Source of the DNA: Schmidtea nova
Taxonomy: Eukaryota
DNA length: 64,000 bases
Reading direction: 5' to 3'
Assembly: GCA_044892505.1 (NCBI GenBank)
Contig: CM097882.1
Location: 26,102,001 to 26,166,000, forward strand
Of this stretch, positions 3,999 to 59,305 are shown one piece after another. A program made the position numbers and the translations under genes. A model generated the notes under the pieces. That model had not been told where the DNA came from. It made no database searches and worked only from the letters and a program-made list of their open reading frames with translations. Position 1 is the first letter of the stretch. Each line of letters starts with the position of its first letter.

Positions 3999-4000
3999 CA

Positions 4001-4554: not shown

Positions 4555-4646
<92 letters not shown>

Positions 4647-33892: not shown

Positions 33893-33966
33893 CAACTTCG
33901 TTTTATCGGAAAAATGTAAACGTAAAATCTGCAGAGAGGTTTAAAATGCTCGTGTCAATTAATTTA

Positions 33967-35401: not shown

Positions 35402-35445
35402 TTGAGGCCAATGAGCCATATTGAATGACCTAGCTAGGCGTTATT

Positions 35446-42300: not shown

Positions 42301-45300
42301 AGCATTCTTCGAACCAACAACGGGAGAAATGAAAACGTTACCCATGTGTAAAATCGACAGGAGCATGTGTCAAACGGGAATGTCAACATTAGTATACAAA
42401 CCAAAGGTGAACGAATGTCAATTACAACTGCTACAAGGAGCACAGTTCGACGAAATCCAAGGAAAAACGTTTCAGGAAGAAGACGACGACGACAAAGCTA
42501 GAGCAAAGCATCTCAAGGAAGCTTTAGAGAATAAAAGACAACTGAAACCAGATCATAGAGAAAAACGAATAGAGATGAGAGCCACACCAACAGTGTTGAT
42601 AACCACAAATCAAGATGTGGGAATGAGATTCATAAAAGGGAAAGCAACCCTTAAGTGTAGTACAACGGTATACGAAACGAATTACCCAGGAATATATGTG
42701 TCAAAACAAGAAGTGCCAAATGCGAAACCCAAAATCGACACAATGGATATCAAACTACACTTGTATGTGAATAATAAAATGGATTTCCTATTCCATAGAG
42801 GACAAGCCTCATTACAAAAAGTGTACTACGATCTAATAAATAATGATTGTATACTAAATCGAGAAATACTAAAGACAAAATTGGCCGTAGCAATTACGAA
42901 TCCCGATAGCGCGATGCCATTATTACCACTGAGAGAAGGACATTTCGGAAGAGTGGTTGGAGAAGCAATGTATGTATACATCTGCGAAAAGACACACGCA
43001 TCGCTAGCAGCAACAACACAGTTGAAACCTGGAACCTGTACAAATGAGTTAGAAATCGATTACAAAGGAAAAGTACGATACGTTCAACCAGTGACGAGAA
43101 TCATCAATCCACCAGGGTTTGAACCAAATCCATTCAACTGTAGTAATGCGTATGGACCGCTTTATCAGAAACCAGATGGTAAATGGGTTATGTTCCCAGG
43201 AAGATCCGAAGTGATAGCACCAAGAGAATTCGAGCTAATGCAGTTGTCAAAGGATAGGCAATTCAGCGACGTGGATGTCTCAAACAATGGAATATATAGC
43301 CCAAAGGATTTAGAAGCAGCAAGGCAGAATATATTATTCCCAGCGAGAAGAGAAGCATTACTGTCAAATATCGTAACGATAACAGGAGGAACGGATTATC
43401 GAGAAGGACCGAATTATGAACTATTGTTGTCACCAGCACATTTCAAAAAAGCCACAGAAAACATGATGAAAGCAATGTGGGGAAGATTTCTGATATTCGG
43501 ACAAATGATGGCTGGAATACTGGGGGTTATATTAATCATCCAAATCGTCAGAGTAATAATAACACAAATGTTAGCATGTTTTGACATCTACAAGAGAGAA
43601 AAGAAAGTGAATTGGAAAATGGTAGTAGGATTTTTACCATTCCTTGCGAAAACGATGGTGTTACACGGTCACTCAAAAGATATCCACCGAATAAAAAGAC
43701 TCCTGAAGATATTAGCAAAAATGAAGGGAACAGATGAAGAAGTAGGACGCAAATTTAAAAAGATAATGAACGACGAACAAGCAAGACAACAGCTCAAGAG
43801 AGAAAGAAAAGGTTTATGGGAGAGGATGAAAGGATATAAAACCCAAAATGATTCGAGTGACGACGATGATGACGATGACGACTATAAGGGAGGACAAGTG
43901 TATAAGAACCAAGCACCACAATACATCGAAAAGAATCCAGCCGACGCATGGAAATGTTACGCACCTCCACCAACCATGTATCAAGAACCACTACAAGGAG
44001 GAAAAAATAGCACGATGCAAATGATGCCAATGACAAATGTATATCCCATGATACCAGAAGATTATAAAATGAGAAGATGTAGAAGCGTAGATCCACAAGG
44101 AGATACACACACGATCGCAGTAATGTCATCAAACACAGGTGCAGTATTAACCACGACAATAGAGATTAACGGAAGGGAAATCGAAGCAATGATCGACACG
44201 GGAGCAAACATTTCCGCCATCGACATCAAATGGATACCACAAGAGCAAAGACGAGAAATAGAAAGGACAAACGTCCATGTAATTGCATGTAGCAAAGAAG
44301 TTGTAGAAGTAGCAGGAAGATGGTGGGTAAAAATACGCCATTTAAACACGGAAATCGATACGTACGTAGCTGTCATACCAGCATTAAGCGTACCTTGCAT
44401 TATCGGAACAGATTTGATGCCAGCACTATTTAAAGAGATTGTAATCGATCTCGGAACAATGAGACTAAAAGATCGCACAGGACAAATATGCGCAATAGAA
44501 GCCAAAGTGACAAGTTCAAAGCAAATGATAATACCCGCAAGAAAGGAGAAAATATGTTACGTAAAAATAGATCCGACAATCCAAGGGGATATGATTTTCG
44601 AACCAAGTAAGAGATTCGAGAAAAGAAAAGCGTTGCCAATGGCAAGAGGACTAGTTAACATAAACGATGATGGAGAAATCCCAATAAACGTAGTAAACTT
44701 CGATGAAGAGGACAAAATAATATACGAAAACGAAAGATTAGGTAAATTAACCCCAATGATGGATATCGAACTGCCAATAGAAGGAGCAGAGAAAGATAAA
44801 GAACCAACCTGGAATATTGATAGTGAATTATTAAATGAGGATCAAAGGAAGCAGCTAGAAAAACTCCTGATAGAGTATAAGGATATATTTGCAGCATCCG
44901 ATTTAGATCTAGGAACATGTGATGTCACACTACATACAATACCATTAACAGATGAAACACCAATTGCATTAAGGCCGTACAAATTAGCGGAAGCACAGAA
45001 AGCAGTAGCAGAAGCAGAAGTGAAGAAAATGTTGGATGCAGAAGTAATCGAACCAAGTTGTTCACCCTGGCAATTTCCAGTGGTAATGGTAAAGAAAAAA
45101 GACGGAACACAGAGATTCTGTATAGATTACCGAAGATTGAATACAGTGACAAAAAGAGATACTTACCCATTACCGGACATCAATGAAATGTTATTAACCT
45201 TACAGGGAGCAGCATATTTTACGTCGTTAGATCTGAAAAGCGGATATTGGCAAATAAAAATGAAGGAAGAAGATAAAGAGAAAACTGCCTTTACCATCGG

Positions 45301-48300
45301 TAGAGACCTATATCAATTTCGAAAGATGCCATTTGGATTAACGAACGCACCAGCATCATTTCAGAGATGCATGAATTTCGTCACCCACGGAATAAAGCAG
45401 TGCATGGTCTACATCGACGACTTATTGATTTACTCTAGTACATTCGAACAACACATACAGGATATTCGAGATGTATTCGTTAGACTTAGACAATGGAAGT
45501 TAAAACTCAAGCCATCAAAATGCGATTGGGCAAAAGAAAAGGTTACATTTTTAGGACATATAGTGTCAGCAAAAGGAAAAGAACCGGATCCTAGAAATAT
45601 CGACAAGGTAAAAGAATGTCCAGTACCAAAAACAATAACCCAAATACAAGAATTTCTCGGACTATGTGGATACTATAGAAAGTTTATAAAAGATTACGCT
45701 GATATCGCAAAGCCTATACAGGAACTGGTAAAGAAAGATGTATCCTTTATATGGGGAGATGAACAACAAACAGCCTTTGAAACATTGAGAGATAAACTGA
45801 TAACCGCACCCATATTAGTACACCCAGACTTTAAGAAGCCATTCTTACTTGCAACGGATGCAAGCGGATACGCAGCGGGAGCAGTATTAGGACAATACGA
45901 TGACGAAGGAAAAGAACGTGTAATCGGATATTATAGCCGGACATTCAAAAAGCATGAGAAAAATTACTCAGTAACAGAACGGGAAGCATTAGCGATTATA
46001 CTAGCAATAAAACATTTTAAATATTTATTATGGGGACACATCATCTGCATAACAACAGATCACCAACCGCTTGTATGGTTAGGACAGCACAAGGAAACAT
46101 CCAGTAGATTAATGCGATGGGCAATGCAGTTACAGGAGTACTCACCAGACATAAAATTTAAATCAGGAAAAGCGAATGCGAATGCAGATTGTATGTCAAG
46201 ACTGACATTTCCGGAATTAACCGATCCTGATGTACAACGAATTTGTGTGTTAATAGCGGAAGATTTGGATTTTAGTGAGTTAAAGAAGGATCAACAGGAA
46301 GACAAAGAATTAGGACAGATCATAGAGTTCCTAACATCTCGAAATAGGGAGATATTTAAGGATAATAAGGAATTAAAGGAACATATAGGAAAATATCAAC
46401 ATCGCTACATAATAAATAAAGGATGGTTATTAATACAAGACGGGGAAAAGAGATTGATGTGTTTACCGGAAAACAGAAGGAAAGAGATAATGATCCAATA
46501 CCATGATGGGAAATTGGGAGGTCATATGTCCGAGAAAAAGACCATAAATCGTATGAGACAAAAATATTATTGGCGAACAATGGAAGAAGATATAAAGGAA
46601 TGGATTAAAAATTGTCTAACTTGCGCAACCAGAAAGGATAGTGGGAAGAAATGGAAGAACCCACTACAACCAATGCCGATACCAGCAGAGCCAATGACAA
46701 CTATAGCAATGGACGTAATAGGACCATTACCAGAAAGTTTAAACGGAAATATTTATATATTGGTGATAACGGATTATCTGACGAAATTCCCGGAAGCATT
46801 TGCCATGCAAGACCAAAAAGCAAAAACCGTAGCAAAGATTCTAGTAGAAGACATATGTTGCAGATACGGAACTCCAAAACAAATACTCACAGACCAAGGA
46901 ACTAATTTTATGAGCGAGTTATTGAACGAGGTGACAAACTATTTCCGAATAGCAAAATTGAGAACTTCACCATATCACCCGCAAACGAATGGACAAACGG
47001 AGCGATTCAACGGCACATTGATTAGAATGTTATCAAACTACGTCAGCAGACACCAAACTGACTGGGATGAATACATAAAATTATGTTTAATGGCATACCG
47101 AATGTCGATACATGCAGCAACAAAACTAAGCCCATTTCAACTTATGTATGGAAGAGAATGCAACATGCCCATAGATTTAGAGTATCAGCCACCATTATCA
47201 CAATATATGGAAGACGACGACTACGTAACCAAATTCAAAGAAAGAATGCAGGAAATATGGAAAACGGCAGAACTCAACATTAAATTTTATCAGGAAAGTT
47301 ATAAGGACTTACACGACCAGAAGAAAAATGTTAAAGCGAACGATCTAAAACCAGGAGATTGGGTGATAATAGAAACTCCCGAAATAATACCAGGAACAGT
47401 TAAGAAACTCCAAAGACCTGGAAGAGGACCTTATGAAATTATATACAAAAAGGACAATAATGTCAAAGTTAAGCTAATAAATCGACCGTTAATACGACCC
47501 ATATATGTAAACACCTGCAGATGTAAGAAGGTGCCTAAAACGATAACTACAACACCAGAAAATCGAATAATAACTAGATCACAAACAGCCAGGATAAATA
47601 TGCTCAGAGCTAATGTAACTGAAGACGACAAAGCAGAAATAAGGCAAAAGGAAATCAGAAATAAAGAAATCATATTGAAGGCGAGAGAGATAATGGGAAG
47701 ATGGCATGTTAGAGACGAAGCAGGCATATCAAGGGATATTAGACATATGATTAGCCGTTACGCACAAGGATTACCAACCGAACCAATTATTTCTGAATTA
47801 TTGGAAAAAATCCCTGAAATACTCTTATTGAAAGATGTAGGAGGACAACCAGCCTTACATAATGCGATAGAGTGTAAAAACATGGAAAGAGCAAAAGAAT
47901 TCCTAAAAATCGCAAAAGAAACAAACCAAAACTTAGACGTAGGGAATCGGGAACAAGAAACTCCATTAATGACAGCCGCAATCCACCAAGCAGATAAAGA
48001 AATGATAGATCTATTGATAAAAGCTCATTTCAGTTGGACAGAAAGAGATAGAGAGGACAAAACAGTGCTAAATCACGTAATATGGAGTTCTCACCAACCA
48101 ATGCTGAAATACATAATAGCTAACTCCACTTGGGAGATAGACGAACTAGTTAAAGGAGATATTATCAAAGAGGCAATCAAAGTCGGTAAATGCAACACGA
48201 TCCGTAAGTTAATCAAATGGAAACGACCAGAAGATGATACATGGGTCCTAGACATAAACGAAGTATACAGCGAAGGACAAAACGCACTGTTAAGATACCT

Positions 48301-51300
48301 TTTGAAATTTACTTGTGATCAGAAGACATTACTAACCTTATTAGACAGAGGAAACATAAACATCACAAAGAATGAAGAAGAATACAAATTCGATAAAGAG
48401 AAGGAAGCCTTATTCAATAAGATTAGGAAATGGTGTGCGAAACCACTTGATAAACTAATAACATACAAAGACATAAACAATTTTAACGAGAAATACCAGA
48501 CAATAGTAAGTGAGTATGAGGAAATAATAAAAATCTTAAACCATCCCGAAAAATGCAAACAGGTTTTAGAGAAAAAAGAAAGAGAAAGTAACAAGAAACT
48601 CACACCACTCTTCAAAGCAGAAGCACCATACCAAGCTAGACTAGATGCGATACAAGAAAAAGCAAAAGAATTGTTACCGGAATTCGAGAATAGTAAACAT
48701 GCACTGGAAATACTCGGCGCATTAGTTGAAAAAGTACACGCATACGCAAAAGGAACATACAATGGTAACGACATAGTAATAATAAAAAAGGAGATGCCAG
48801 TAACATTCCTATTACCAAAAGACGGAATAATGCCCATACATAGAGCTCTACGAAATGGCAAAGATAGGAAAGTAATGGAAATTGCAAGAGTAATGCTAAA
48901 TTGCGGAAGCAATATGAATATGATAGACGAGAAAGGAGATACACTTATGGTATTTGCAGCAAGGGCCAAAACGAAAACAAAGGTATTAGAAGAACTATAC
49001 AAAGCAGGTGCAGGACTTACAGGAAAGACAGATAAAGATAATTCGATATTGGATGTAGCATTATTAACACACAATTGGGAAATGGTCAATTTCATTAAAA
49101 CCGTCCCAAATCAGGAAGAAATAGATCACCTAACTGATACGGTCAAGAAACCCAGTGTACTAGCAATGATGAACAACGTCGAACTAACAGAATCAATACT
49201 TACGTGGATAAATCCTAATACTAACGAACCAGCATTCAGGATTAATAAATTTACAGAACATAACCAAAACTGGTGTATAAGAAGTGCCTTAATAACGTAT
49301 AAATGGCCAGAGATATTGAAGATGTTTATGGAAAGAAAGGATCTAAGAATCACAACCAGCCCGAAAGAAGAAAAATACACAGGCAAATGGAAAGAATTGA
49401 TGAAGACATACATCAACAATTGGATCAAGGCCAAAAAGGAAATCTTGGAACATAAATCCACTAACAAAGTAATACCGGAGCAGGTAGAAACACAAGAATT
49501 TGAGGCAAGTAATCTAACGACATTAGCATATGCGAAACTAATAGAAGAAATAAATGTCGAGGACGACATTTTCGACGAACCAGGGGGAGATGACAACACA
49601 GATAGTGACGACGGTAACAACTCAGATAACTCAAGCGATCACGAACCACCCGATAAAGAGGAAAACGAGAGAAAAGACAAGAAACGAGACAAAGAAGAAA
49701 AGAAAAGTGAAGACGAAAAACAAAGAGATGAAGATGGAGAACAAGGAAAAAACGACCAAAGAGATAAAAATGACACCCAAAGAACAGGTTATAAATCAAC
49801 CATAAAACCATTCTTCAAACCAGAATTACTATTATTAACAGTGATTTTAACGTTAATTAACCCAAGTCAAGGAATGACATGTGAAGAAAGGGCAATAATA
49901 CAAATAAAAAACGCAAAAGGAATCGAACGAGTATGTTGGTCGAAAAAGGACAAAATCACGGAACAAAATAGGCCGATGGATTGCAGAATCTCAAAACACG
50001 AGCAAGAAATCATAGAGATCAATGACTTAGATCTAGATACCTGGTACAAAATATGCACCGTTAGAAAACAAAAGCATCCAAGATCACACAACACAATCGC
50101 ATGTGCAAAATACCAAACACCTAAAGCAGCCATGACAATACAACAGTCACCCAAAGGAGATTACATCCTCGGAAAATGTGGAAGAACAGAGACACAGGGA
50201 ACAGAAAACAAAAAACCCCCGGCAATAGATAAGCAAACAACACCAACTATACGAATTACAATAAAGAGGCCCGAAGCAAGAGTGGCCACAAACGAAACCG
50301 AAAGAGTGTCTTACCAAATGGAAGTATTATGCTTAGCACTCATACTAATAATAATAAAACGATTAGAGGAAGGAATAGAAATTGAAACTATGACAATAAC
50401 AGAAGTGGAAGATACACAGAACACTAACATAAAATGTTGGGCGAGGAATGACGAAGAAATCGGTGTAAATGAAATAAGGAAAAGTCGAAAACCCACAACA
50501 AACAAAGTAATTAAAGTATCCGAAGTAAGAGCAGACAAGACGTACAAACTATGCCTACTTGAGAAAGAGAGGAACAAGAAAGGTACCACAAAATGTAAAA
50601 CATTCCAACCTGGAGAGGTAATAAAGTTCCGAAGGAGAACGAGGAAGAGAAATAAACAAATCAAGCAGAAACTGAACATAACATTAGAAATAAAAGAAAT
50701 AGAACCAAATGTGAAAGGAGTATGCTGGAGGAAGTACGAAAAGGAAACAAATAAAAGAACGACACCACAATGTCAAACAAGCACAGGAGCAACAACGATA
50801 CAAATAAAAGGTCTAGAAAGTAAACAAACCTACGAAATATGTTTGGTAAAGAAAAATGATCAGATAACGATAAACGACCTAGAATGCGGAATACATACAA
50901 CTTCATCCGGAACAAGAACCAAAACGTTAACACGGAAAAATAAAAGGAAACAACGAAACAAAGAAAAACCGAAGTACACCACTACCTTTAAAAATAATAA
51001 ACAACCAATAAGCCAGGAAGCCACGACAAAACCCGAGAAAAAGACATCAGCAACTCTGACATTATGGAAAATAGAGAATAAAACATTAGAAATATGTTGG
51101 ATAATAGTTCAGAAACCTATAAGAAGACAATCAAGAGAGTGCAGAAAAACAAATAAAGAAATCAAGATCGAAAAACTACAATTTAATAGCGAGTATGAAG
51201 TATGTGCAATAGAAAGAATGGACGCACTAGGAAACCAACAAGAAAGATGCGAAACCTACTATACACCAGCGAACGCAACATCAAAAGGAATAACAAGGAA

Positions 51301-53275
51301 ACTCGAATTCAGGGAACTAAGCCAAACGAATGAACAAATGGACGTAGAAAAAACAATAACCGACCCTCAAGCAAAATGGACACCCGAAGAAGTTATCAAG
51401 GAAGTCAAAAGAAAGCAAGAGGAACGGGAACAATTAATGAGAAAACTAAAGGGACAATACGGAATAATGTCCAACCAAAGCGAATCTATACAAACAGACG
51501 AGAATAAAGAAATTAAAGAACTAATTGGCTTAGGAATATTAACAGCGACCATTCCAGTAATAATCGCGTTATCAGCTATATGGATACGCAAGATAAGCCC
51601 AAGAAAATCAACAACCCAATGGCTAAATATAGATAATACAAGCCATGGAGTAGAAATACTAGAAGAAAAAGCACGAGAAGAACCAAATAAGAAAGAAGCG
51701 AAAAGCGGAAAACTAGGAATAAACAACAAAGACAAGGAAATAAAAGAGATTAAAGGCGAAGAGAAAAAATATGAAAGGCGGACCAGAAGCCTACCGCAGA
51801 GTTCAAAATGGTTGGGTCTAACAATAATATTGACATTAATTAATAGGGAAGAAGCAATAAACCCACAGACAGGAATAAAAGTAATAAATGTCCAGGAAGT
51901 CGAGAAAATATGTTGGTATAGAGAAGATGAACCAATTGGAGAAAATAACCCACTAAAATGCATAATCAGAAAATCCGACCAGGATATCGTACGAATAGAA
52001 GAAATGGATGGAGGAACCATACATCGGATATGCATAATAGAAAAGGAAAAGAAGTCGGGGCTACCTAAGACAGTCGTATGCCAGAAATATGAAACGCCTA
52101 GACTTGAATGGTATAGAGTAAAACCAACAAAGAAAGAAATCAAAAACACAATAGATCAACCAGCAACTCAGATAAGAAACACGACGGATAAACCAGGAGA
52201 AGGGGAGAGAAGCATAAATAACACGAGAGAAGGAGCATCACCCCAACAAGATGTCGTATGCATAGCGTTAATAATAGCAATGTCCAAACGTATCAATAAA
52301 GGAATAACAATAGAACAAATGGCCATGACAATAAGGAGAAAAGGCCGGAGTAGCAACAAAATATGCTGGGGATGGTACAACGGACAAAAAGAATACCAAG
52401 TTCAGACAAGCGACGAATCACGAACAAACAAGGAAACCGAAATACAAGAAATACAAATGGACGGAGAAGGAAGTATATGTATATGGGAGAAAGGAATCCA
52501 AGAAGATCAACCCGGAATAGAAAAGTGCAAGACATTCCAAAAAGGAGAAATTCTGAAATTCGATGAAAAAGAATTAACCAAAACAGAAAGAACTCTGACA
52601 TTAACAGGACTTGATCAGACAGTGAAAGGAATATGTTGGACAAAACATAACCCAGAAGGAGAAGAAGGTAACCTAACCCACTGTAAAGAAACAGGGAATA
52701 AAGAAAAAGTCGAATTAAAGAAAATGGAAGTAAATAGGACATACGTGATATGTACCTTCACCAGAAAAGGTTCAGAAAAACCAGAATGCGGATTATATCA
52801 GATCTCAGAGAAACCACAACAACAGATCAAACCAGGAAACGTGGAAAACCGAACAAAAGAAAATAACGTCAAACAACTACTAAATCGCCATTGGTCTACA
52901 CAAGAAGTAATGAACAAAGTCAAGAATCAAGTACAGAAGGAGAAGAAGCCAGAGGCTCAAACCCAAAATGAGATAAAAGCGAATCAGAATAAAATCAAAG
53001 CAACAAACCGTGGAAAAACAGTAATAGGATTAATCAGTATAGGAATATTAATAGCATATGGGATAATGACGACAAGCATGATAATATATTGGAGATACAG
53101 AAAGAGAAACAAAGCGACAGCCATACAATGGCCAGATATTAAAATTATGAAGCAAAGAATAGAAATACCAGAAGAAATACAGCAAGAATTCCAAAGAAGA
53201 ACGAAAGGTAAAGAATTCTGGAAACAAATAGAAGATGAAGAACGATACGAGGAAAAGACGACAATGAGGGTATAG
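36311..53275 (+). CDS. Single ~5,650-aa polyprotein: Gag-Ubl x3-Bcl2-like-Env-PR-RT-RH-IN-ANK-FN3-like/TM modules
   Basis: Frame open from 36278 to the stop at 53273-53275 with no frameshift; first ATG at 36797, so the true start is uncertain. Domain evidence in the sub-features. Confidence 0.97.
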   Translation: MRKGAKSVVVKPTEKKVDSNSNKKDKTSTTTKSTKKQKAGKDNPQGSKSRKIIRDKSITENDKLSIISNSSSNKENQAEPKENQASETESDETNNDNIEEVENEVEPEIEINASDNESIISDNEGIRETESDSSSSKTEDEHNNELETRGNESKITQDSGIEMGEPREEIKDKFSGEPFNGDASKLETFLKEFGIFVEVCKWKAETTVSRIQLYLKDSALDLYLEAKNGTNPPTSWTAIKDFFQQTFGINKVLSEAFIEFSMRKQKMNESNAVYASELKKLAKSVFKDGGPINEELMAAIFIGGLRRPDIRAQVGCQGCKTIDQALETANRFELHMIGSEGRIYLAMDTAQTEPEVNLNNHIPNSQQLNRPPPQRRNEGNKVQNFGNQNNYNPQGQTKQCKTCGKLGHWQQECYQNLNCGKCGVKGHSESRCSTIICFNCGRPGHYSRNCGQKSNQRGNWQSNGNRPNYGNQANTVNRPDYGNQQNNNNNNQNKTTPKEIHLMQEVQRLTELINNTTRGNPQTNQQQISMMRKIESENERLNRESQARHAQEWARIQREDEQKQQERERQPLRINMLRATNQTDTREKETTLEMNSINPNPADNESRKEIVQKDEEVEKEAEKGEETEINQEERRKIWKKGMMVIMPNDHMFRFQYNAKEKVEILFNKVNQMIPGVTKLPREAFLQIEGAPSVKLKLTDIWENMGVVETKRNVMRIKEIEPEEIPPPIRHETRIRRIFEGKMIRRRLKEIDELGKKMEKVKIIEDKSEPTPEIDKNEPEPTENIQGETNQTAHINMLRNTTREFSDEEEDSDISSLAGDILKESEDENKEMKVIKTSEPTQIKVDEIQKLLDNSLEVIYNEEFMDKKQYRKFMKALLQMNYKEWLQDREVDMLNRYVGKLIEEPLLNYTISIIINTSTPRIWIKTPFTDDIYRWVEDRLGSSYRNKFIYSQNRLVKKRTHLVETGIWPGEITLLSICDEKEEENLQEVAREANACFERRIKPRLEYEKERVLRKNLNFLIEQIIPQVKKHRKELMRSEYEKLKRCIECIRDTSHTRWSQISHDKLIAKMGKTMFRQGKITDLKISVELPNEDTKEIEVVADCTIKELINVINETLVQREPEDEWEDDIIIQYNEHVLWDHDERRLYKIGIWDNHQTIHVSRMDDTPRETAKDEKRERERRKEVVRKLQQIVDIYRNWRIWPEWENVLEELNLNRRIRTPVEKQWNEKGKCWEPKEGEYEEEYKRGIEDDCEPEIGRVCMVTRKATPIDLDGPETAAMWLEREKQKTEEFVEILKTNAHGKRKLIKGLADFFAVNGEDITCLRKVAKAITEYKRVNEWCPEQLDHVIRKWRNQEFSQEIPQKVHLRIIYPNKDKEELWVGIAEKIRDIKKKLRYEPPFHLQHQGRSLDNSLEIGITPAQLDLMNTLTVEAIAGQPLKRKEENHKLHGSISTPSPMKSVLTPGTSSRRSETTPRGTRERTPPQPYDVDEILTDSDDMIEELTELTKEKEDNIFERIQELPTTIQVTNTGEAEVEEEIIIEEVNDLTEDETRGANVENVQLTQEMERWLEERANEPRDVTEETGRATRFVETGTGMDRRHRGRPKTDPANIVVRNKDEKRQDQWELCLRKLNKIAEMKEKETTPICQGEEWISKIIMEILAIIDPELRKYWRITEISEKAKSLHSAIAPILPEFIKEKTKSNHLDWQGTTTLIKKLTEGAETDNKYVIAIAYTIYNLLTLSRGRPKPTALERHIKNTAKIIAREIEPYVINIGGWETFIKANQKKTQAKNMKKKFEKILEELEKEQAGTGNAKSSMNLSAIIMMMLIWMISTDSATAFEVFDCDQMKLGEKYSLRGTEQCKDATPVELQKIKKEQWYHVYQEAELIKTMVNECKVQKTRFAFYCGRGHYSAIVMPGTEREPIVLQGEDCEALFKHGEVTTRDKIKIRGKPGMMMQQTYYVAGRITGGEGYCQGETYPIFGVPATNLVVMDTYIVELKSYEAFFEPTTGEMKTLPMCKIDRSMCQTGMSTLVYKPKVNECQLQLLQGAQFDEIQGKTFQEEDDDDKARAKHLKEALENKRQLKPDHREKRIEMRATPTVLITTNQDVGMRFIKGKATLKCSTTVYETNYPGIYVSKQEVPNAKPKIDTMDIKLHLYVNNKMDFLFHRGQASLQKVYYDLINNDCILNREILKTKLAVAITNPDSAMPLLPLREGHFGRVVGEAMYVYICEKTHASLAATTQLKPGTCTNELEIDYKGKVRYVQPVTRIINPPGFEPNPFNCSNAYGPLYQKPDGKWVMFPGRSEVIAPREFELMQLSKDRQFSDVDVSNNGIYSPKDLEAARQNILFPARREALLSNIVTITGGTDYREGPNYELLLSPAHFKKATENMMKAMWGRFLIFGQMMAGILGVILIIQIVRVIITQMLACFDIYKREKKVNWKMVVGFLPFLAKTMVLHGHSKDIHRIKRLLKILAKMKGTDEEVGRKFKKIMNDEQARQQLKRERKGLWERMKGYKTQNDSSDDDDDDDDYKGGQVYKNQAPQYIEKNPADAWKCYAPPPTMYQEPLQGGKNSTMQMMPMTNVYPMIPEDYKMRRCRSVDPQGDTHTIAVMSSNTGAVLTTTIEINGREIEAMIDTGANISAIDIKWIPQEQRREIERTNVHVIACSKEVVEVAGRWWVKIRHLNTEIDTYVAVIPALSVPCIIGTDLMPALFKEIVIDLGTMRLKDRTGQICAIEAKVTSSKQMIIPARKEKICYVKIDPTIQGDMIFEPSKRFEKRKALPMARGLVNINDDGEIPINVVNFDEEDKIIYENERLGKLTPMMDIELPIEGAEKDKEPTWNIDSELLNEDQRKQLEKLLIEYKDIFAASDLDLGTCDVTLHTIPLTDETPIALRPYKLAEAQKAVAEAEVKKMLDAEVIEPSCSPWQFPVVMVKKKDGTQRFCIDYRRLNTVTKRDTYPLPDINEMLLTLQGAAYFTSLDLKSGYWQIKMKEEDKEKTAFTIGRDLYQFRKMPFGLTNAPASFQRCMNFVTHGIKQCMVYIDDLLIYSSTFEQHIQDIRDVFVRLRQWKLKLKPSKCDWAKEKVTFLGHIVSAKGKEPDPRNIDKVKECPVPKTITQIQEFLGLCGYYRKFIKDYADIAKPIQELVKKDVSFIWGDEQQTAFETLRDKLITAPILVHPDFKKPFLLATDASGYAAGAVLGQYDDEGKERVIGYYSRTFKKHEKNYSVTEREALAIILAIKHFKYLLWGHIICITTDHQPLVWLGQHKETSSRLMRWAMQLQEYSPDIKFKSGKANANADCMSRLTFPELTDPDVQRICVLIAEDLDFSELKKDQQEDKELGQIIEFLTSRNREIFKDNKELKEHIGKYQHRYIINKGWLLIQDGEKRLMCLPENRRKEIMIQYHDGKLGGHMSEKKTINRMRQKYYWRTMEEDIKEWIKNCLTCATRKDSGKKWKNPLQPMPIPAEPMTTIAMDVIGPLPESLNGNIYILVITDYLTKFPEAFAMQDQKAKTVAKILVEDICCRYGTPKQILTDQGTNFMSELLNEVTNYFRIAKLRTSPYHPQTNGQTERFNGTLIRMLSNYVSRHQTDWDEYIKLCLMAYRMSIHAATKLSPFQLMYGRECNMPIDLEYQPPLSQYMEDDDYVTKFKERMQEIWKTAELNIKFYQESYKDLHDQKKNVKANDLKPGDWVIIETPEIIPGTVKKLQRPGRGPYEIIYKKDNNVKVKLINRPLIRPIYVNTCRCKKVPKTITTTPENRIITRSQTARINMLRANVTEDDKAEIRQKEIRNKEIILKAREIMGRWHVRDEAGISRDIRHMISRYAQGLPTEPIISELLEKIPEILLLKDVGGQPALHNAIECKNMERAKEFLKIAKETNQNLDVGNREQETPLMTAAIHQADKEMIDLLIKAHFSWTERDREDKTVLNHVIWSSHQPMLKYIIANSTWEIDELVKGDIIKEAIKVGKCNTIRKLIKWKRPEDDTWVLDINEVYSEGQNALLRYLLKFTCDQKTLLTLLDRGNINITKNEEEYKFDKEKEALFNKIRKWCAKPLDKLITYKDINNFNEKYQTIVSEYEEIIKILNHPEKCKQVLEKKERESNKKLTPLFKAEAPYQARLDAIQEKAKELLPEFENSKHALEILGALVEKVHAYAKGTYNGNDIVIIKKEMPVTFLLPKDGIMPIHRALRNGKDRKVMEIARVMLNCGSNMNMIDEKGDTLMVFAARAKTKTKVLEELYKAGAGLTGKTDKDNSILDVALLTHNWEMVNFIKTVPNQEEIDHLTDTVKKPSVLAMMNNVELTESILTWINPNTNEPAFRINKFTEHNQNWCIRSALITYKWPEILKMFMERKDLRITTSPKEEKYTGKWKELMKTYINNWIKAKKEILEHKSTNKVIPEQVETQEFEASNLTTLAYAKLIEEINVEDDIFDEPGGDDNTDSDDGNNSDNSSDHEPPDKEENERKDKKRDKEEKKSEDEKQRDEDGEQGKNDQRDKNDTQRTGYKSTIKPFFKPELLLLTVILTLINPSQGMTCEERAIIQIKNAKGIERVCWSKKDKITEQNRPMDCRISKHEQEIIEINDLDLDTWYKICTVRKQKHPRSHNTIACAKYQTPKAAMTIQQSPKGDYILGKCGRTETQGTENKKPPAIDKQTTPTIRITIKRPEARVATNETERVSYQMEVLCLALILIIIKRLEEGIEIETMTITEVEDTQNTNIKCWARNDEEIGVNEIRKSRKPTTNKVIKVSEVRADKTYKLCLLEKERNKKGTTKCKTFQPGEVIKFRRRTRKRNKQIKQKLNITLEIKEIEPNVKGVCWRKYEKETNKRTTPQCQTSTGATTIQIKGLESKQTYEICLVKKNDQITINDLECGIHTTSSGTRTKTLTRKNKRKQRNKEKPKYTTTFKNNKQPISQEATTKPEKKTSATLTLWKIENKTLEICWIIVQKPIRRQSRECRKTNKEIKIEKLQFNSEYEVCAIERMDALGNQQERCETYYTPANATSKGITRKLEFRELSQTNEQMDVEKTITDPQAKWTPEEVIKEVKRKQEEREQLMRKLKGQYGIMSNQSESIQTDENKEIKELIGLGILTATIPVIIALSAIWIRKISPRKSTTQWLNIDNTSHGVEILEEKAREEPNKKEAKSGKLGINNKDKEIKEIKGEEKKYERRTRSLPQSSKWLGLTIILTLINREEAINPQTGIKVINVQEVEKICWYREDEPIGENNPLKCIIRKSDQDIVRIEEMDGGTIHRICIIEKEKKSGLPKTVVCQKYETPRLEWYRVKPTKKEIKNTIDQPATQIRNTTDKPGEGERSINNTREGASPQQDVVCIALIIAMSKRINKGITIEQMAMTIRRKGRSSNKICWGWYNGQKEYQVQTSDESRTNKETEIQEIQMDGEGSICIWEKGIQEDQPGIEKCKTFQKGEILKFDEKELTKTERTLTLTGLDQTVKGICWTKHNPEGEEGNLTHCKETGNKEKVELKKMEVNRTYVICTFTRKGSEKPECGLYQISEKPQQQIKPGNVENRTKENNVKQLLNRHWSTQEVMNKVKNQVQKEKKPEAQTQNEIKANQNKIKATNRGKTVIGLISIGILIAYGIMTTSMIIYWRYRKRNKATAIQWPDIKIMKQRIEIPEEIQQEFQRRTKGKEFWKQIEDEERYEEKTTMRV
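36797..37660 (+). other. gag: Gag capsid-like domain + three CCHC zinc knuckles
   Basis: FNGDASKLETFL..LYL..SWTAIK..F..RKQ..ES..Y..EL..FIGGL; CKTCGKLGHWQQEC, CGKCGVKGHSESRC, CFNCGRPGHYSRNC (37508-37660). Confidence 0.92.
38228..40597 (+). other. Three ubiquitin-like (beta-grasp) domains: 38228-38463, 39554-39793, 40394-40597
   Basis: Best copy LKISVELPNEDTKEIEVVADCTIKELINVI..IIIQYNEHVL..DERRLYKIGI..TIHV follows the ubiquitin hydrophobic pattern; other two weaker; no C-terminal GG. Confidence 0.6.
41252..41650 (+). other. Bcl-2-like domain
   Basis: Helical region ending in BH2-like IAREIEPYVINIGGWETF; degenerate BH1 position (LTEGAETDNKYVIAIAY). Confidence 0.7.
41747..43670 (+). other. env: Envelope glycoprotein, chuvirus/gB-like class III fusogen, embedded in the polyprotein
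   Basis: Signal-like MNLSAIIMMMLIWMISTDSATA then FEVFDC; Cys pattern and motifs (CKVQKTRFAFYCG, AGRITGGEGYCQG, LYVNNKMDF..DC.LNREIL, GEAMYVYIC, CTNEL, PVTRI..C, NGIYSPKDLE..ILFP) colinear with chuviral-type glycoproteins; REKR at 42557-42568; TM 43487-43582. Confidence 0.85.
44108..44480 (+). other. Retropepsin aspartic protease (followed by a dUTPase-like spacer to ~44760)
   Basis: IEAMIDTGANISAI (DTG at 44195) and CIIGTDL. Confidence 0.95.
44810..46210 (+). other. pol: Reverse transcriptase + RNase H
   Basis: SPW..PVVMVKKKDG..RFCIDYRRLN, LDLKSGYWQI, MPFGLTNAPASFQR, YIDD (45410); TDASGYAAGAVL, EREALAI, TDHQPL, ADCMSR. Confidence 0.98.
46250..47590 (+). other. Integrase (HHCC, DD35E, GPY/F)
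   Basis: YHDGKLGGH..CLTC; MDVIGPL, TDQGTNF, GQTERFN; GRGPYEI. No chromodomain seen. Confidence 0.97.
47830..49100 (+). other. Two ankyrin-repeat clusters
   Basis: GQPALHNAI, QETPLMTAA, DKTVLNHVI; GIMPIHRAL, GDTLMVFAA, DNSILDVAL. Confidence 0.85.
49820..53275 (+). other. Two paralogous membrane modules with seven Cys-bearing FN3-like domains
   Basis: Module A 49820-51640 (4 domains, TM 51521-51583); module B 51809-53275 (3 domains, TM 53021-53092); repeated CW..C..I..L...T.Y.IC..C...T motif. Confidence 0.65.
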
Positions 53276-53401
53276 GGGCGGATTATGACTGTAAATAATA
53301 GTGTAAATAACAAAGCATTACCGTAATAGTATGGGTATCGATATTATAAAAAATTGTAAAAAGCTAGAAAAACAAAGTAAATGATGTATATAATTTAGAA
53401 A

Positions 53402-53758
53402 ATGACCGAACAGGACGAAACAACTGAAATAACTATGGCTATGAGATGGAAAGCACAATGTGATTTATTAGTACGAACAGTCAACTCATTACAGAACCAA
53501 TTAGCGGAAAGACAAATGTTATTATCAGAAAGTTATAACAATTGTTTCGAACAATTACACAGAATAGAGGAACAACAAAGAGCGATAACTGAACTCACCA
53601 GAGAAAATCAAACGATAAGCAACACCAATCAAAGACAAGCAATAGAAATAAACCATTTAACACGAGGAGAAAGAGAAGGATCCGAAGAAGGATGGATGAG
53701 TTGGGTAATAAATAGATTAAACAACGAAGCGGAACCAGATTCAACGAATGAGCCATAG
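53402..53758 (+). CDS. 118-aa coiled-coil orphan
   Basis: ATG in TAGAAAATG context, heptad pattern, element-like codon bias. Confidence 0.75.
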   Translation: MTEQDETTEITMAMRWKAQCDLLVRTVNSLQNQLAERQMLLSESYNNCFEQLHRIEEQQRAITELTRENQTISNTNQRQAIEINHLTRGEREGSEEGWMSWVINRLNNEAEPDSTNEP

Positions 53759-53852
53759 ATAAATAAAGCGGAAAACTGTAAATATGTAAAAATAAAAACA
53801 AGAAAAATCCAAAAAATAAATGACAAGTCGAATGTATATATTATTGTAGAAA

Positions 53853-55229
53853 ATGGACAGAGAAGAACGAATAATCGAAATTTTGAGACTAGAAAACAGA
53901 AAATGGAGTAAGAGGCTCACATGCGGGAAGTGTAACAATTTATTACGAGAACCCAGACAAACGATATGTGGATGTAGAATATGTACAAAATGTATACAAG
54001 AATTGGATGCAACAGGAATAACAACATGCCCAGAATGTAAAGAAGGAGGAATAGTGTTGGACGAAACCAGAACGGACAAAGCAACCCAAAGAGAAATTAT
54101 GAGCACCACAACGGAGTGCGTAAATACACCTTGTACATGGCAAGGACAAATAAGTAATCTGGAAAACCATATGGAAAAATGCGAGGAAAAGAGAGCCGAA
54201 TGCGAGAAATGCCAACAGACAATAACTCTAAAGAAGAGAGAACAACACAAGGAAGAATGTAAAGAAGAAGAAATCGCATGCGAGTATTGTGAAGCCCGAG
54301 AAACAAGGAGAAAAATCGAAGAAGAACACTTGAATATAACAGAGGAGAAAGTATGCGGACAATATGTAAGTAAATGTCCAAACAATTGTGAAATAACAGA
54401 AGAAATAAAATTACATGAACATTGGAAACTATGTACCGAAAGGCCAAGAGAATGCCCATATAACAAGCATGGATGCAAGGAAAAGCGGACGCGAAAAACA
54501 ATGCAACAACATCTAGAAGAAGCAGCACTAACGCATGTGGAAATGACAAACGAAACGACTAAAGAAACGGAACGGACAATTCAGAAATTAGAAAAAGAAG
54601 TAGAATCACATAAAATAATGATGAGTTTACTACTAGAAACAAGAGAGCAGTTTGAACTAACTCGCGAAAGAATGGAAAAGAAAATAATAGCCATAGAAGA
54701 ATTAGGAAAAGGAATGAAAATACAATATAATCAATTAATACGAGAAATTGACGAAAGAAGGGACTTACCAATCGCACCTTACCTATGGAAAGTAACAGAT
54801 TTCAGAGACAAATTAGCAGAAGCCAGAAATATGACGAAAACAGCAGTAATAAGCCCACCATTTTATTTATGGAAAAACGGGGTTAAAATAAGATTGAAAG
54901 TATACCCAAATGGAGACGGAAGAGGACAAGGAACACACGTGTCAATATTCTTCTCACTATGTAAAGGAGAATACGATGACCTAATAAAATGGCCCTTGAA
55001 AATAGGAGTCATTATAAGAATCAAAAGTACGGGAAAACCAGTAGAAAAGTTCTTTGAAACAGACAAACATTCGAGTACGAGCGAAAAGCCAACGACAGAA
55101 TGCGGACTAGCAGCAGGAGAACCAATGTTTATAAGGAAAGAAAACCTATGGGAGCAACTATATACAGACACGCTATACATAGAGATGGAGAGGCATGAGA
55201 AAGCAGACAGAAAAGGATGGTTGGCGTAA
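53853..55229 (+). CDS. Intronless full-length TRAF homologue (RING, TRAF Zn fingers, coiled coil, MATH)
   Basis: CGKC..CGCRICTKC..CPEC RING; C..C..H..C fingers; YLWKVTDF..SPPFY..YPNGDGRGQGTHVSIFF..GEYDDLIKWP MATH. Confidence 0.96.
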   Translation: MDREERIIEILRLENRKWSKRLTCGKCNNLLREPRQTICGCRICTKCIQELDATGITTCPECKEGGIVLDETRTDKATQREIMSTTTECVNTPCTWQGQISNLENHMEKCEEKRAECEKCQQTITLKKREQHKEECKEEEIACEYCEARETRRKIEEEHLNITEEKVCGQYVSKCPNNCEITEEIKLHEHWKLCTERPRECPYNKHGCKEKRTRKTMQQHLEEAALTHVEMTNETTKETERTIQKLEKEVESHKIMMSLLLETREQFELTRERMEKKIIAIEELGKGMKIQYNQLIREIDERRDLPIAPYLWKVTDFRDKLAEARNMTKTAVISPPFYLWKNGVKIRLKVYPNGDGRGQGTHVSIFFSLCKGEYDDLIKWPLKIGVIIRIKSTGKPVEKFFETDKHSSTSEKPTTECGLAAGEPMFIRKENLWEQLYTDTLYIEMERHEKADRKGWLA

Positions 55230-55342
55230 TGAAGGAAGTAACCATGTAAATAAAATGTATAGAAACAATATGAATTAACAAATAATCAAAAACAATAAAA
55301 AATAAAAAATGATTAAATATTCTTTTATCTGTAATTATAGAA

Positions 55343-56404
55343 ATGGGAAATATAGAAGTAACCTTACAAGAAGTAACAGTACATCAAGACGAAATGATCA
55401 GAAATCACATGGAGCGGATTGGGATATGGATTCATGCCTATTATCGAAAACAGGAAGAATTGGAAAGACAAACCCAAGCACTAAGAGAAGCCGAGAAAAC
55501 GAATCAAAGAAGTCGAGAAAAAATAGAAGAAGTCTACAAACTACTAAGACAACAAAACGAATACTACAAAGAGATGATGAAAGAGCGACGAGAGGATAGG
55601 GATAGACAACAAATAAAAACAGACCATAAGATTCAGTCAATCACAGAACAAGCAAGATATTGGAAGAAAGAGGCAAAAGACTCTTACAAGGAAGCAAGGG
55701 AGATAATAGAACGAACAGCGTACAGCGATGATTGGAAACTGTTTAAAGAGATCGATGAATTAAAAGAGGAATTAGGGCAAAAGATCAGTCAAGAAGCGTC
55801 AAATAAAGTATGGAGTAAGAAAAGACAACAATTCATCAGAGAACAAGCCAAGAAAATAAAAGAATTAACTTATCAAGTACAAAGAATGGGAGAAGATTTA
55901 GCCAATCAAGAACAATTAAAAGGTATGCTGACCGGAATGTGGAATCACAAGGAAGAAAACATGAAAAGAGACATAAATGGATATCAAGGAGTGATCACCC
56001 AGAAGAAAATAGAATTAAAAAGAACTAAAGAAAGACTGGAAGAAACGAGGCAGAGTTATGAAGAGAACATAACAAATTTGGCAAAAGAAAACGAAGAACT
56101 GAGAAAGAAGTTGGCAGAAAAACCAACACCAATAAAAGAAACAAGTATCACAGCAGCAGTGACCGAAATGATGGAGAAGGAAGAGAGAGAGAAAAAATTG
56201 GCAGAACTAGAAAAACAAATTGAAACCCTAACAGAACAGGCGAACTATCTGGAATACTTATTAGATGAAGAGATCCAGATATCCCACACATACCGAGAAG
56301 AAGTCGAAATGTGGAGGAGCACGGTAATATGGATGCCACTCCCCATAAATCAGGTGGAACCTCAAGACGAAGGTTTTTACGAACCCAACGAAACCCTTGT
56401 ATAA
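55343..56404 (+). CDS. 353-aa coiled-coil orphan
   Basis: Long E/K/Q/R heptad-rich ORF; TAGAAATG start; no recognised domain. Confidence 0.85.
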   Translation: MGNIEVTLQEVTVHQDEMIRNHMERIGIWIHAYYRKQEELERQTQALREAEKTNQRSREKIEEVYKLLRQQNEYYKEMMKERREDRDRQQIKTDHKIQSITEQARYWKKEAKDSYKEAREIIERTAYSDDWKLFKEIDELKEELGQKISQEASNKVWSKKRQQFIREQAKKIKELTYQVQRMGEDLANQEQLKGMLTGMWNHKEENMKRDINGYQGVITQKKIELKRTKERLEETRQSYEENITNLAKENEELRKKLAEKPTPIKETSITAAVTEMMEKEEREKKLAELEKQIETLTEQANYLEYLLDEEIQISHTYREEVEMWRSTVIWMPLPINQVEPQDEGFYEPNETLV

Positions 56405-56479
56405 ACGTGCGAAAACCAAGTGTAAATAAATTATGTAAAATAAAAAGTGTCAAGCTGTATTGACCGATGTATAAAAGAG

Positions 56480-57049
56480 ATGAGAAAGCTCGCAATAGCA
56501 ACACTCCTATGGTTAACAACCATTACCCTACAGAGAGAAGATCTACAACTAACCGAAACCCAATTACGAGTTCTACCCGACAAAATCTACCAGAAAGTAG
56601 ACAGCCTAATCGAAGAAGTAATTAAAGAAATCAACGAATTCCGACAGAAATATCCCTACAATCAAGATCATCAAATCCAACAAATCTTCGATAACCAACA
56701 ACTGAAACTAGAAGAAACCCGAAAAATCCTAAAAGAAGGTAGAGAACCCATAAAAAGCCTATCCCAAGCTGAAATAGAATATCAAGAGAAATGGATCATA
56801 GCAATCATCATAATCCTAGCAGTCAGCACAACTATCATCGCAATCACAATCCTGCTTGCCTCGTATAGAATAAAAATCCTAAAACAAAAGCAGAAAATCT
56901 ACAACCAAACCTCCAGACGAGATAACCGAGCTCAAAGACGAATAAGGAGCCATCTCAACCACATTCAAACCCACTACGAGCTACAAATGATCAACGAGAG
57001 GACCCGAACTCAACCCCAAGCGAGCCAGACGATCGAACAAATTGTATAA
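56480..57049 (+). CDS. 189-aa predicted type I membrane orphan
   Basis: ATG at 56480 in frame with the listed GTG ORF; signal-like MRKLAIATLLWLTTIT; TM WIIAIIIILAVSTTIIAITILLA followed by a basic tail. Confidence 0.78.
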   Translation: MRKLAIATLLWLTTITLQREDLQLTETQLRVLPDKIYQKVDSLIEEVIKEINEFRQKYPYNQDHQIQQIFDNQQLKLEETRKILKEGREPIKSLSQAEIEYQEKWIIAIIIILAVSTTIIAITILLASYRIKILKQKQKIYNQTSRRDNRAQRRIRSHLNHIQTHYELQMINERTRTQPQASQTIEQIV

Positions 57050-57251: not shown

Positions 57252-58641
57252 TGTTGGGCCCGCCAAATCACCTAAAAACACAATAAAACGAACAAAAGCA
57301 TGAAACAATAAAGAAATAATAAAAATAAAAATAGCAAGAAAAACAAATTAAAAATAACAATAAAACGACAAATAATAATTGATAAATTTTCAGTAAAAGG
57401 AAATTTTGAAAATAAACCGGTAAACAACCGCAAAAGGGGGCCTGAAATAAGAAAAAATATAATTAAATAAAATAATAGTACAAATAATTAATTAATTACT
57501 TGGAAAATCAGGACCACCCAGCGAGAAACCGGAAAAGGAAACAAAATAATGTTTAGATTAGAATAAAATAATAAAAATACTTTGATGGACGGCCTGATCC
57601 TGATTGGTCAATCCAACCAGACGGATCAGTATAAATACCGATCCAAAAATCATAACTCAACAGTTAAGACGTTTTACATTTCACTTACAATCAAGACTAA
57701 ACTTTGATTTAAGTAACATTTCATTTAACGAAGCGAGAATTTTTTGAAAAAACAGAATTCAAGTACGGAACGTAATTTTGATTGTTATTTTTTGTGTACC
57801 CATGATTTTTGTTTGATTAAAATTTTATATGTAAACGTTATTTTATTTTTTCATTGATTATTGACACTTTAATGCATATAGCTATACTTCCTATGCTGCT
57901 CACGCGGCGAGGGAGTCCGAGTCGTCGTCGTGGGGCCTCAGGGTCTCACATGGCGGTTCAACCTTTTTATTATTTAATTTAGATGTGAAGTTTTATCTAG
58001 AAAATTTGATTGAATTTTTAGTCTAATACAGACCATTTGCAAATTATTTAATTTTGGGTTGCACAACGGACGAAGGTCGAGGGCCAAATATGTAGATTGC
58101 GGAGGGCGGATGGATAAGGAGGGACACACCATGGTAGGGCATGCTCAGTCTTTAAATTTTTGGTAAATTGAATCGAAAGGGAACCTCCCGCATGGAAAAC
58201 AGTGAGCAACAACTAAAATAAATTTGAATAATTTCGTTGGAATGAGAAAATCCAACGTAGTCCAAAGTCCGATTTCATTCGGAATCAGCATTTCGCCTAC
58301 AAAATTTTAATATCGATAAATTCCGATCGCGATGGAATGCGTCGGAAAATCCAAATTAAATTAGTTACTAAAAATAGGCCGATCGTCGTATATGACGCGG
58401 TTTCCCAAGTTATTCTCCGATCGCTGTATATAGCGCGGAAATCTTGATTAAATTTGATAATTCCTGAATGCTGCATATAGCACAGGACTAATTATGAACT
58501 CTTTATTCCGACCGTGGTAGATCACGGCGGAGAGAAATAAAATTAATCTTATTTTTTAACGGTTGTGATTATATGCAACATAATTAAATTATCAACGAAT
58601 TCCCCCTTAACTCATATTTATATCCAATAAATGTAATATAG

Positions 58642-59121
58642 ATGTCGACAGCTGAACTTACAAATCAATTAACGCAACTACGGAATATGGAGCAAGGGAA
58701 TCTGCGGAATGAAAATATCTCGCAGCTCAAGGATCTACCAGCATCGATATTGCGAACCCTCAACTGCCAAATGTATAAGTGGCGACAGGGGTTTGGCCGA
58801 AAATGCCCGTTCTCGATATGGACAGGAGGGCACGACCAAATACTCTATCGAGGAGGACCGAACTGGCCGATTTCTCAAAGGCCGTACTCAAACAAATTTG
58901 GCCGACTTGTCGTACTGATCAAGGACACCGATGGACAGACAAGCCGTGTAATTTATTGGGGGCATATCCCTCGTCGGGAACTATGCCAACTAGGCCTACA
59001 CGAATTCCTGCCACGAAAACCGTTCGGCAAGGAGTGCCAGAAAGGACAACCCTCATTCTCTTGGGCTCGTCTCCGTCAGAAACCGATTAACAGCGAATTA
59101 CATAGCCTGTTTCGGAGATAA
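58642..59121 (+). CDS. ORF-L1 copy in 3' LTR
   Basis: Translation identical to 32140-32619. Confidence 0.5.
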   Translation: MSTAELTNQLTQLRNMEQGNLRNENISQLKDLPASILRTLNCQMYKWRQGFGRKCPFSIWTGGHDQILYRGGPNWPISQRPYSNKFGRLVVLIKDTDGQTSRVIYWGHIPRRELCQLGLHEFLPRKPFGKECQKGQPSFSWARLRQKPINSELHSLFRR

Positions 59122-59305
59122 GAACTGATTGTCAAATCTTTCAAATTGTGATTAAATATTAATATTCAGCAGTGTTTTTGTTATGTTGTTTTGAGTTTTG
59201 GTATTGTGTTTTTAATAATTCATATTCGTAACCAAATAACCCTATGATCAGTTTCATTTTTCACATCATTTAATCATAGAGTAAATATCCTAAATAAATT
59301 ATAGA

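Follow-up and report, generated by a model that had tools for sequence, protein, structure and literature searches.

Why should a Gypsy-type retrotransposon carry more than a thousand codons of receptor-like sequence at the end of its polyprotein? The question is raised by a long terminal repeat (LTR) retrotransposon of the planarian Schmidtea nova, located at 30750-60370 of the 64,000-nucleotide stretch analysed here (assembly GCA_044892505.1, contig CM097882.1, positions 26,102,001 to 26,166,000, forward strand; hereafter the window, whose numbering is used throughout). The element is 29.6 kb long, young and, by layout, of Burro type. Its single long frame runs in the order Gag, accessory region, Env, protease, reverse transcriptase (RT), RNase H, integrase, ankyrins and finally two membrane units of fibronectin type III (FN3)-like domains. 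By analogy and comparison with relatives, these units may provide attachment, or docking at junctions, as a second glycoprotein of the envelope or cell surface, a reading that we favour at a little short of an even chance.

The last 1,151 codons of the polyprotein comprise two paralogous units, A (residues 4515-5176) and B (residues 5177-5665), which align at 29% identity over 363 columns (E 4e-44). Both share one plan: an 11-residue apolar leader, a domain, an 11-residue apolar patch, more domains, a stalk, a transmembrane (TM) segment and a tail that starts with basic residues. There are four domains in unit A (D1-D4) and three in unit B (D5-D7); D1 pairs with D5, D2 with D6 and D3 with D7, leaving D4 unpaired.

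49820-49873, forward: predicted internal signal of unit A, with an 11-residue apolar core and small residues at -3/-1 (hydropathy; signal role judged by eye)
49874-50125, forward: D1, probably FN3-type (domain alignments)
50324-50362, forward: hydrophobic patch 1, paralogous to the signal sequence and with Lys-Arg after it; the sister family conserves it
50366-50911, forward: D2 and D3 (domain alignments, structure models)
51038-51271, forward: D4, with no counterpart in unit B (domain alignments)
51272-51808, forward: stalk of unit A with a predicted helix, a 22-residue TM segment (51521-51586) and a 74-residue tail leading into the next signal
51809-51856, forward: predicted internal signal of unit B (hydropathy; aligns with the unit A signal)
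51857-52102, forward: D5, paralogue of D1 (alignment)
52253-52285, forward: hydrophobic patch 2 (hydropathy)
52295-52813, forward: D6 and D7, paralogues of D2 and D3 (alignment)
52814-53275, forward: stalk of unit B, a 25-residue TM segment (53018-53092) and a 60-residue tail with a W-P motif, an acidic tyrosine and a C-terminal Met-x-Val

A previous sequence-only reading of the window had described two paralogous units, as the alignment and domain pairing confirm, and the hydrophobic segments lie where it had placed them (starts at 49826, 50324, 51809 and 52253; TM segments at 51521-51586 and 53018-53092). Its seven domains are indeed related: when all 21 domain pairs were compared with 200 shuffles, most gave z > 4, the weak ones involving D6 (z 1-3 with D1, D3 and D5). 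The motif said to be common to all seven, CW..C..I..L...T.Y, is less uniform than claimed, as D2 and D6 have no second cysteine, and the Tyr of the tyrosine corner (L-x-x-x-T-x-Y), which FN3 has between strands E and F, is present in D1-D4 and D7 but missing in D5 and D6. The density of N-glycan sequons in the units is close to that expected from composition and carries no weight. Basic clusters in unit A were considered as heparan sulfate binders and set aside because A-rich codon use inflates Lys and Arg.

The same reading had taken the extension for a peculiarity of this Pol, which is not borne out: every gB-type Env-bearing relative with a readable end carries a single unit after its integrase. 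Relatives were reached through Env, Pol and TRAF, not through the extension itself. Sequence searches for relatives of the extension returned 0 of 5,517 candidates among longer proteins and none in 1.84 billion representatives, a search with the P0008 unit gave 0 of 8,000 shorter candidates, and none of 103 pattern matches to the extension in viral contigs was confirmed. An Env-Pol search yielded 19 long proteins, six of them, all metagenomic, with the same Env family, and these six all end after the integrase in a signal-like segment, tyrosine-corner-type domains, a stalk, a TM segment and a short tail. Both metagenomic contigs that reach the end of the polyprotein also have a unit (L069, and L071 with a different, cysteine-rich ectodomain), L070 stopping short of it. 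Within the S. nova genome the seven other Env-bearing families (five shorter families, a Burro1-like family and a sister family, L153) each read with one unit. Altogether a signal-ectodomain-TM unit follows the integrase in 15 of 15 other Env-bearing lineages with a readable end, lineages that are not independent, since the five short families are close kin and P0004, P0007 and P0009 form one clade; two further long-frame families (3,232 and 3,754 codons; C1:104139889 and C1:261268341) stand outside this count. As controls, 12 of 13 long proteins without Env have no strong apolar segment after the integrase, the thirteenth scoring 2.22 in a fused gene model, and no such segment occurs at any of 30 conventional integrase loci, 29 of which belong to one family and many of which are broken. 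The post-integrase unit is clade-wide, and only its tandem duplication is specific to the window's family, which has two units where the sister family and the other relatives have one each. In the sister family the order is D1, patch, D2, D3, D4, TM segment and tail. Unit A retains this ectodomain plan and unit B the tail, the TM segment plus tail of unit B being 49% identical to the sister's, against 25% for the tail of unit A.

Several relatives bear additional features. In L069 an extra signal-ectodomain-TM unit lies between Env and protease (4760-5350), giving three predicted membrane proteins in that element. P0004, P0005, P0007 and P0009 have additional aspartic-protease-like copies, either before the main protease or after the integrase. 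An exonuclease-like (RNase_T family) open reading frame (ORF) lies downstream of the polyprotein in shorter Env-bearing elements (L069:10617-12104, L102:8146-9624). Many copies of the Burro1-like family (L160, L161, L170 and others) share a frame of 1,346-1,350 codons over the ankyrin-FN3 end and are possibly a non-autonomous subfamily that retains the unit.

What, then, are the domains? They very probably adopt the FN3 fold, and here the comparative evidence is stronger than the direct evidence from the window, whose own domains reach Pfam values no better than E 0.13 (fn3 for D3, Fn3_ELFN for D1). The homologous four-domain unit of the Burro1-like family scores 27.5 bits against the Pfam fn3 cut-off of 25 (E 3.7e-6), and D3 is 40% identical to a domain of that unit (E 1e-5). 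When a profile of 15 domains from three families was compared with the PDB, all six matches at E <= 10 were FN3 proteins (E 0.04-2.3; Tie2, fibronectin, ELFN2 and titin), and a profile of the window's domains alone gave four FN3 matches in five (NCAM1, contactin-4). In alignments with contactin-4 and NCAM1 the CW of the domains falls on FN3 strand C and not on the tryptophan of strand B. In the ESM Atlas the ten best families for the window are all FN3, with a top match of 0.86 that shuffles often reach; the unit of L069, an independent lineage, reaches 0.91 to FN3 clusters. Structure prediction, which the sequence-only reading had proposed, gave mostly beta models of low confidence; its FN3-type assignment stands as probable through the Burro1-like unit and the profiles. 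On the opposite side of the balance, the AlphaFold models are poor (mean predicted local distance difference test score 40 and 47), Foldseek of both gave no match at E <= 0.001 and nothing usable in the PDB or BFVD, and the VIA comparison stayed at Z <= 5.7, with many FN3 entries (Z 4-5.5) but other sandwiches too. No host donor gene was found; an Fn3_ELFN search of the genome was blank and uninformative.

The orientation of these domains in the membrane bears directly on function. Hydropathy and flanking charge of the units fit a signal, a luminal ectodomain, a single TM segment and a cytosolic tail, supporting the proposed type I cell-surface topology as a prediction, and the internal signal sequences argue for release of the units from the polyprotein. 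The second hydrophobic patch complicates this picture. Its 11-residue apolar core, followed by Lys-Arg, resembles a stop-transfer sequence and was modelled as a helix; against the sister family the patch is better conserved than the signal, and the sister's patch has no small residues at -1/-3. These features would suit a resident of the endoplasmic reticulum (ER) or a helper of mixed topology: either D1 alone would be held by the patch, or the unit would act as an intracellular chaperone for Env folding and particle budding and bind no ligand at the surface. The patch, though, aligns with the signal sequence, which, on this alignment, places the duplication of a block of signal plus domain ahead of the split between this family and its sister, and the patch is apparently a duplicated, uncleavable signal-like segment. 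Moreover, the Burro1-like unit, with four homologous domains and the same W-P tail, is laid out as a plain type I protein and lacks the patch; compared with it, a single crossing at the patch would put D2-D4 and the tail on the opposite side of the membrane. Passage into the lumen is favoured for that reason, and we judge that the patch probably passes through; a mixed topology is unlikely, and an inversion that leaves D2-D4 inside still less likely, these gradings being a matter of judgement. The invariant paired cysteines also favour the lumen, and Env appears to have moved between families without the unit, which leaves the ER or mixed-topology helper an improbable account. A pairing of the patch cysteine with the free cysteine of D2 or D6 was considered and weakened, as the sister family's signal sequence has the same cysteine.

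Support for a cytosolic tail, hence for a luminal ectodomain, came from the C-termini. A class I PDZ-type end (Ser/Thr-x-Val/Leu, the motif as commonly defined) is present in 11 of 17 C-termini and in six of nine lineages, where composition predicts about 0.03 per end. Those without it are the window's element, its sister, P0005, L071, L103 and L066, the last an early-stop copy whose family member L067 has the motif. Each unit has the TM segment and tail motif that the sequence-only reading described, except that of its QW it is the W-P behind the basic cluster that all three long families share; the preceding Gln is not shared, being Lys in the sister family. Acidic tyrosine motifs, possible kinase sites, were noticed by eye in the tails of the window's element, L153, L164, P0004 and P0007.

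Could the tails mean that the units signal to the host instead? As host-modulating receptor mimics they would sit on the surface of the expressing cell, their tails promoting survival or dampening immunity via the element's TRAF, PDZ scaffolds or tyrosine kinases. This would agree with the anti-apoptotic cargo that Burro elements carry, among which the B-IAP of Burro1 is reported, at second hand in the available text of PMC13465017, to protect stem cells. A TRAF ORF begins 575 bp downstream of the polyprotein and MATH/TRAF occurs in all three long families, but two shorter Env-bearing families keep the unit with a downstream ORF that is exonuclease-like, not TRAF. Tail B, with its acidic tyrosine site, is conserved with the sister at the level given above, yet in that family, itself with a TRAF, Lys replaces the TRAF-type Gln. 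Next to the membrane, W-P-x-I/V resembles one half of the Box1 of cytokine receptors as that motif is generally known; its Pro-x-Pro core is missing, and neither this nor WSxWS, the class I cytokine receptor motifs in their usual definitions, is present in the two units. Similarly, the FN3 of gp130 was the top VIA entry (Z 5.5) but tied with unrelated folds. We regard a receptor mimic as somewhat unlikely.

Evidence that the extension is maintained came from other copies in the genome. All 111 scored matches (of 3,189 candidates) include its first 367 residues at 94-100% identity, about 30 of them, counted by eye, in frames of more than 5,600 codons. Selection was assessed in 34 other copies, comprising 26 search loci (the window's own and three duplicates were dropped) and eight fetched stretches, which alone extend to D7 and the last tail, using variants shared by at least two copies. 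The ratio of nonsynonymous to synonymous rates (dN/dS) was 0.13 for D1-D4 (34 nonsynonymous and 64 synonymous variants), 0.26 for D5-D7 (41 and 39), 0.25 for linkers and 0.10 for ankyrins; ratios above 1 in small windows at the second signal and the last TM segment have one synonymous change each and carry no weight. Across the other copies 29 of 30 cysteines are invariant. Both units are under purifying selection, and this, together with the genome-wide copies, rules out an artefact or a chance frame.

Purifying rather than positive selection within the family also bears on the suggestion that the ectodomains bind or mask an entry receptor or a host defence ligand, and so keep competing Burro families from superinfecting the cell or protect particles. 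Such interference would have its uses in a genome with at least eight Env-bearing families, two of them with near-identical Env; the ectodomains vary fast, and many Burro1-like copies keep their frame of 1,346-1,350 codons over the unit. Interference is, though, normally a property of Env itself, and PDZ-type ends suggest localisation, which a decoy would not need. We consider interference or decoy function improbable.

Comparison with the sister family indicates how the units relate to the fusogen. The Env ectodomains are 97% identical (dS 0.36), RT 93% and integrase 86% (dS saturated), against 28-54% for the FN3 domains. As the DNA of the Env ectodomain and TM segment (41978-43600) is 90-96% identical and the rest 64-84%, Env was likely exchanged recently between the two families. 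One fusogen beside such different FN3 units is what an independent tether would lead one to expect, and counts against a closely matched trigger.

Among the functions that the sequence-only reading had put forward, attachment fits the comparative evidence best, and receptor decoy and superinfection block fit it less well. In the attachment reading, internal signals would send the ectodomains into the ER lumen, where signal peptidase would free the N-termini of the units, as for the element's Env, and the units would arrive at the cell surface or particle membrane in constant proportion to Gag and Env. The FN3 arrays would bind a surface ligand on a neighbouring cell, and the cytoplasmic tail would bind PDZ scaffolds and gather the protein at the cell contacts where Env fuses membranes, the unit tethering independently, without triggering Env by tight contact. 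After the doubling in the window's family, unit B would keep the free C-terminus and ancestral tail, and unit A the four-domain ectodomain, its tail running into the second signal and having drifted.

More tentatively, Burro-clade elements may be two-glycoprotein enveloped retroelements, in which a captured mimic of an FN3 adhesion molecule, its tail binding PDZ proteins, fastens the element to cell junctions and provides the receptor binding missing from the gB-type fusogen. Such elements would pass from one planarian stem cell to another, families swapping the fusogen and diversifying and doubling the attachment protein.

Several observations weigh against attachment. Several class III fusogens need no helper to bind receptors. 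Divergence is as fast in the ankyrins (41-50% identity to the sister) as in the FN3 domains, so that on its own it does not single out attachment. The patch with its Lys-Arg could stop transfer and leave D2-D4 in the cytosol. The window's polyprotein ends in Met-x-Val and the sister's in Ile-Val-Val, which are hydrophobic-x-Val, class II-like ends and not class I. The unit of L071 is not FN3-like in appearance, the window-domain profile detects no domains in the metagenomic or short families, and the post-integrase slot may, to judge from these sequences, hold unrelated proteins. Finally, the non-Env control is weak, given the make-up of its 30 loci.

The element that carries the units is otherwise composed as follows.

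30750-33868, forward: 5' LTR of 3,119 bp with TG...CA ends, one mismatch against the 3' LTR, 4-bp target-site duplication AATA
36278-53275, forward: single open frame of 5,665 codons, first Met at 36797
37500-37670, forward: Gag zinc knuckles, three CCHC motifs (Pfam zf-CCHC E 1.6e-7 and reading of the sequence)
41759-43561, forward: Env, with internal signal, gB-type (Monjiviricetes) fusion glycoprotein ectodomain and TM segment (PF24664 E 9.4e-73; hydropathy)
44156-46981, forward: protease, RT, RNase H and integrase in Gypsy order (Pfam RVP, RVT_1, RT_RNaseH, Integrase_H2C2, rve)
47800-49500, forward: ankyrin repeats in two blocks (Pfam Ank_2 E 2.7e-14)
53850-55229, forward: separate TRAF-like ORF with RING, zinc fingers, coiled coil and MATH (MATH_2 E 6.5e-21, zf-TRAF E 5e-7)
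55313-57049, forward: two further accessory ORFs, a 363-codon coiled coil (55313-56404) and an ORF of 201 codons that starts like a signal and contains a TM segment (56444-57049)
57252-60370, forward: 3' LTR of 3,119 bp, pair of the 5' LTR

Env is placed in frame between Gag and Pol. Its gB-type label is a Pfam family assignment; a PDB sequence search with it gave no match. A BH2-like stretch was seen by eye near 41650, before Env, where a BCL2-like motif of Burro elements was sought; this region had no Pfam or PDB match to such a motif, and no BIR was found in a Pfam scan of the element's main ORFs. The TRAF-like ORF is intact in eight of eight fetched copies and about 52% identical to the TRAF of the sister family; a large cluster of TRAF/MATH lies on C2 of the host genome. 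The accessory ORFs within 55313-57049 are also retained in other copies of the element. Of these, 55313-56404, like 53399-53758, is a coiled-coil ORF and 56444-57049 a possible third membrane protein, all three with nothing above the Pfam cut-off. Within the LTR lie ORFs of 159 and 202 codons (58642-59121 and 59294-59902, with copies in the 5' LTR), neither with a Pfam family match. At 33869-33895 is what we take to be a primer-binding site resembling tRNA-Pro, and the 5' untranslated region holds tandem arrays of 29-bp and 32-bp units (35134-35731). An Ile-Asn-Met-Leu-Arg-type motif recurs at domain borders of the polyprotein (about residues 590, 812 and 3775) as a candidate protease site. 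The coding strand over 36278-53275 is strongly A-rich, with AT skew up to 0.53. Outside the element, 1-6125 of the window is likely a hAT-type DNA transposon, with a DUF4371 ORF (1835-3295) enclosed by inverted repeats of 1,255 bp, and with tandem repeats of 120 bp.

How does this arrangement compare with known systems? Cellular FN3 surface proteins (NCAM1, contactin-4, Tie2, ELFN2, fibronectin) share FN3 arrays, a stalk, a TM segment and often PDZ-binding tails; the units differ in having no Ig or LRR domains and gave no significant match to any one cellular family. In herpesviruses (gD and gH/gL beside gB) and paramyxoviruses (HN/G beside F) a separate receptor-binding glycoprotein serves the fusogen; no sequence likeness to these was found in the units, and the exchange of Env argues against a tightly co-evolved trigger.

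The element family itself is already known. Burro1/GYPSM1 and Burro2-4 are planarian Gypsy elements of giant size (Jurka 2007; Grohme 2018; both as given in PMC6431247) and, in the available text of PMC6431247, resemble the element of the window in their size of about 30 kb, long LTRs, a polyprotein of about 5,000 residues, CCHC Gag, Env between Gag and Pol, ankyrins and MATH/TRAF. In the window TRAF is a separate downstream ORF, whereas the Burro1-like family of the same genome has MATH inside its frame of 4,993-5,006 codons; from their sequences the two are different families. Section 7 of PMC6431247 lists no post-integrase membrane protein, and 'fibronectin' does not occur in the text available. 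GAG-ENV-POL errantiviruses whose Env is of the gB type of herpes simplex virus (HSV) are described from Platyhelminthes (Chary and Hayashi 2026, PMC13524379), also with Env before Pol, and by eye the window's Env is closest to their Smed_errantivirus_5 and _6. That paper, in the text available, treats Env as the sole glycoprotein, and its main text has no occurrence of fibronectin, FN3, attachment, accessory, ankyrin or Burro. Neither paper mentions a post-integrase membrane protein in its available text, the supplements of PMC13524379 having been searched for taxon and element names only. No paper was found on FN3 domains in Burro or Gypsy polyproteins, although figures or supplements of Grohme 2018 and Lee 2026 may already annotate the unit. 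Within the literature covered, the post-integrase membrane unit is apparently new, and it accounts for some of that half of the Burro polyprotein which had lacked annotation.

The Discussion of PMC13524379, as available, leaves the entry of gB-carrying errantiviruses unexplained, since HSV needs gD, gH and gL. The unit is a concrete, clade-wide candidate, in the same polyprotein, for the partner glycoprotein that these viruses seemed to lack. Should it signal to the host instead, it would be a transposon-borne surface receptor in stem cells, beside the reported anti-apoptotic role of Burro1. Planarians are an animal in which RNA interference, fluorescence in situ hybridisation and antibodies work. 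For docking at cell contacts there is a viral parallel in the Env of HTLV-1, which uses a C-terminal PDZ motif and Dlg there (PMC3185783, in the part available). The closest parallel in arrangement is the Atlas virus of hookworm (BEL/Pao; available text of PMC9094657), in which one polyprotein likewise gives two glycoproteins, a variable GN-like protein and a fusogen; the same pattern of a variable partner beside a conserved fusogen is described there for phlebovirus GN and GC. Atlas virus is a belpaovirus with a class II fusogen whose adjacent GN and GC were taken together from a phlebovirus, whereas in the element of the window the glycoproteins flank Pol, the fusogen is predicted to be of class III and its candidate partner resembles a cellular FN3 protein.

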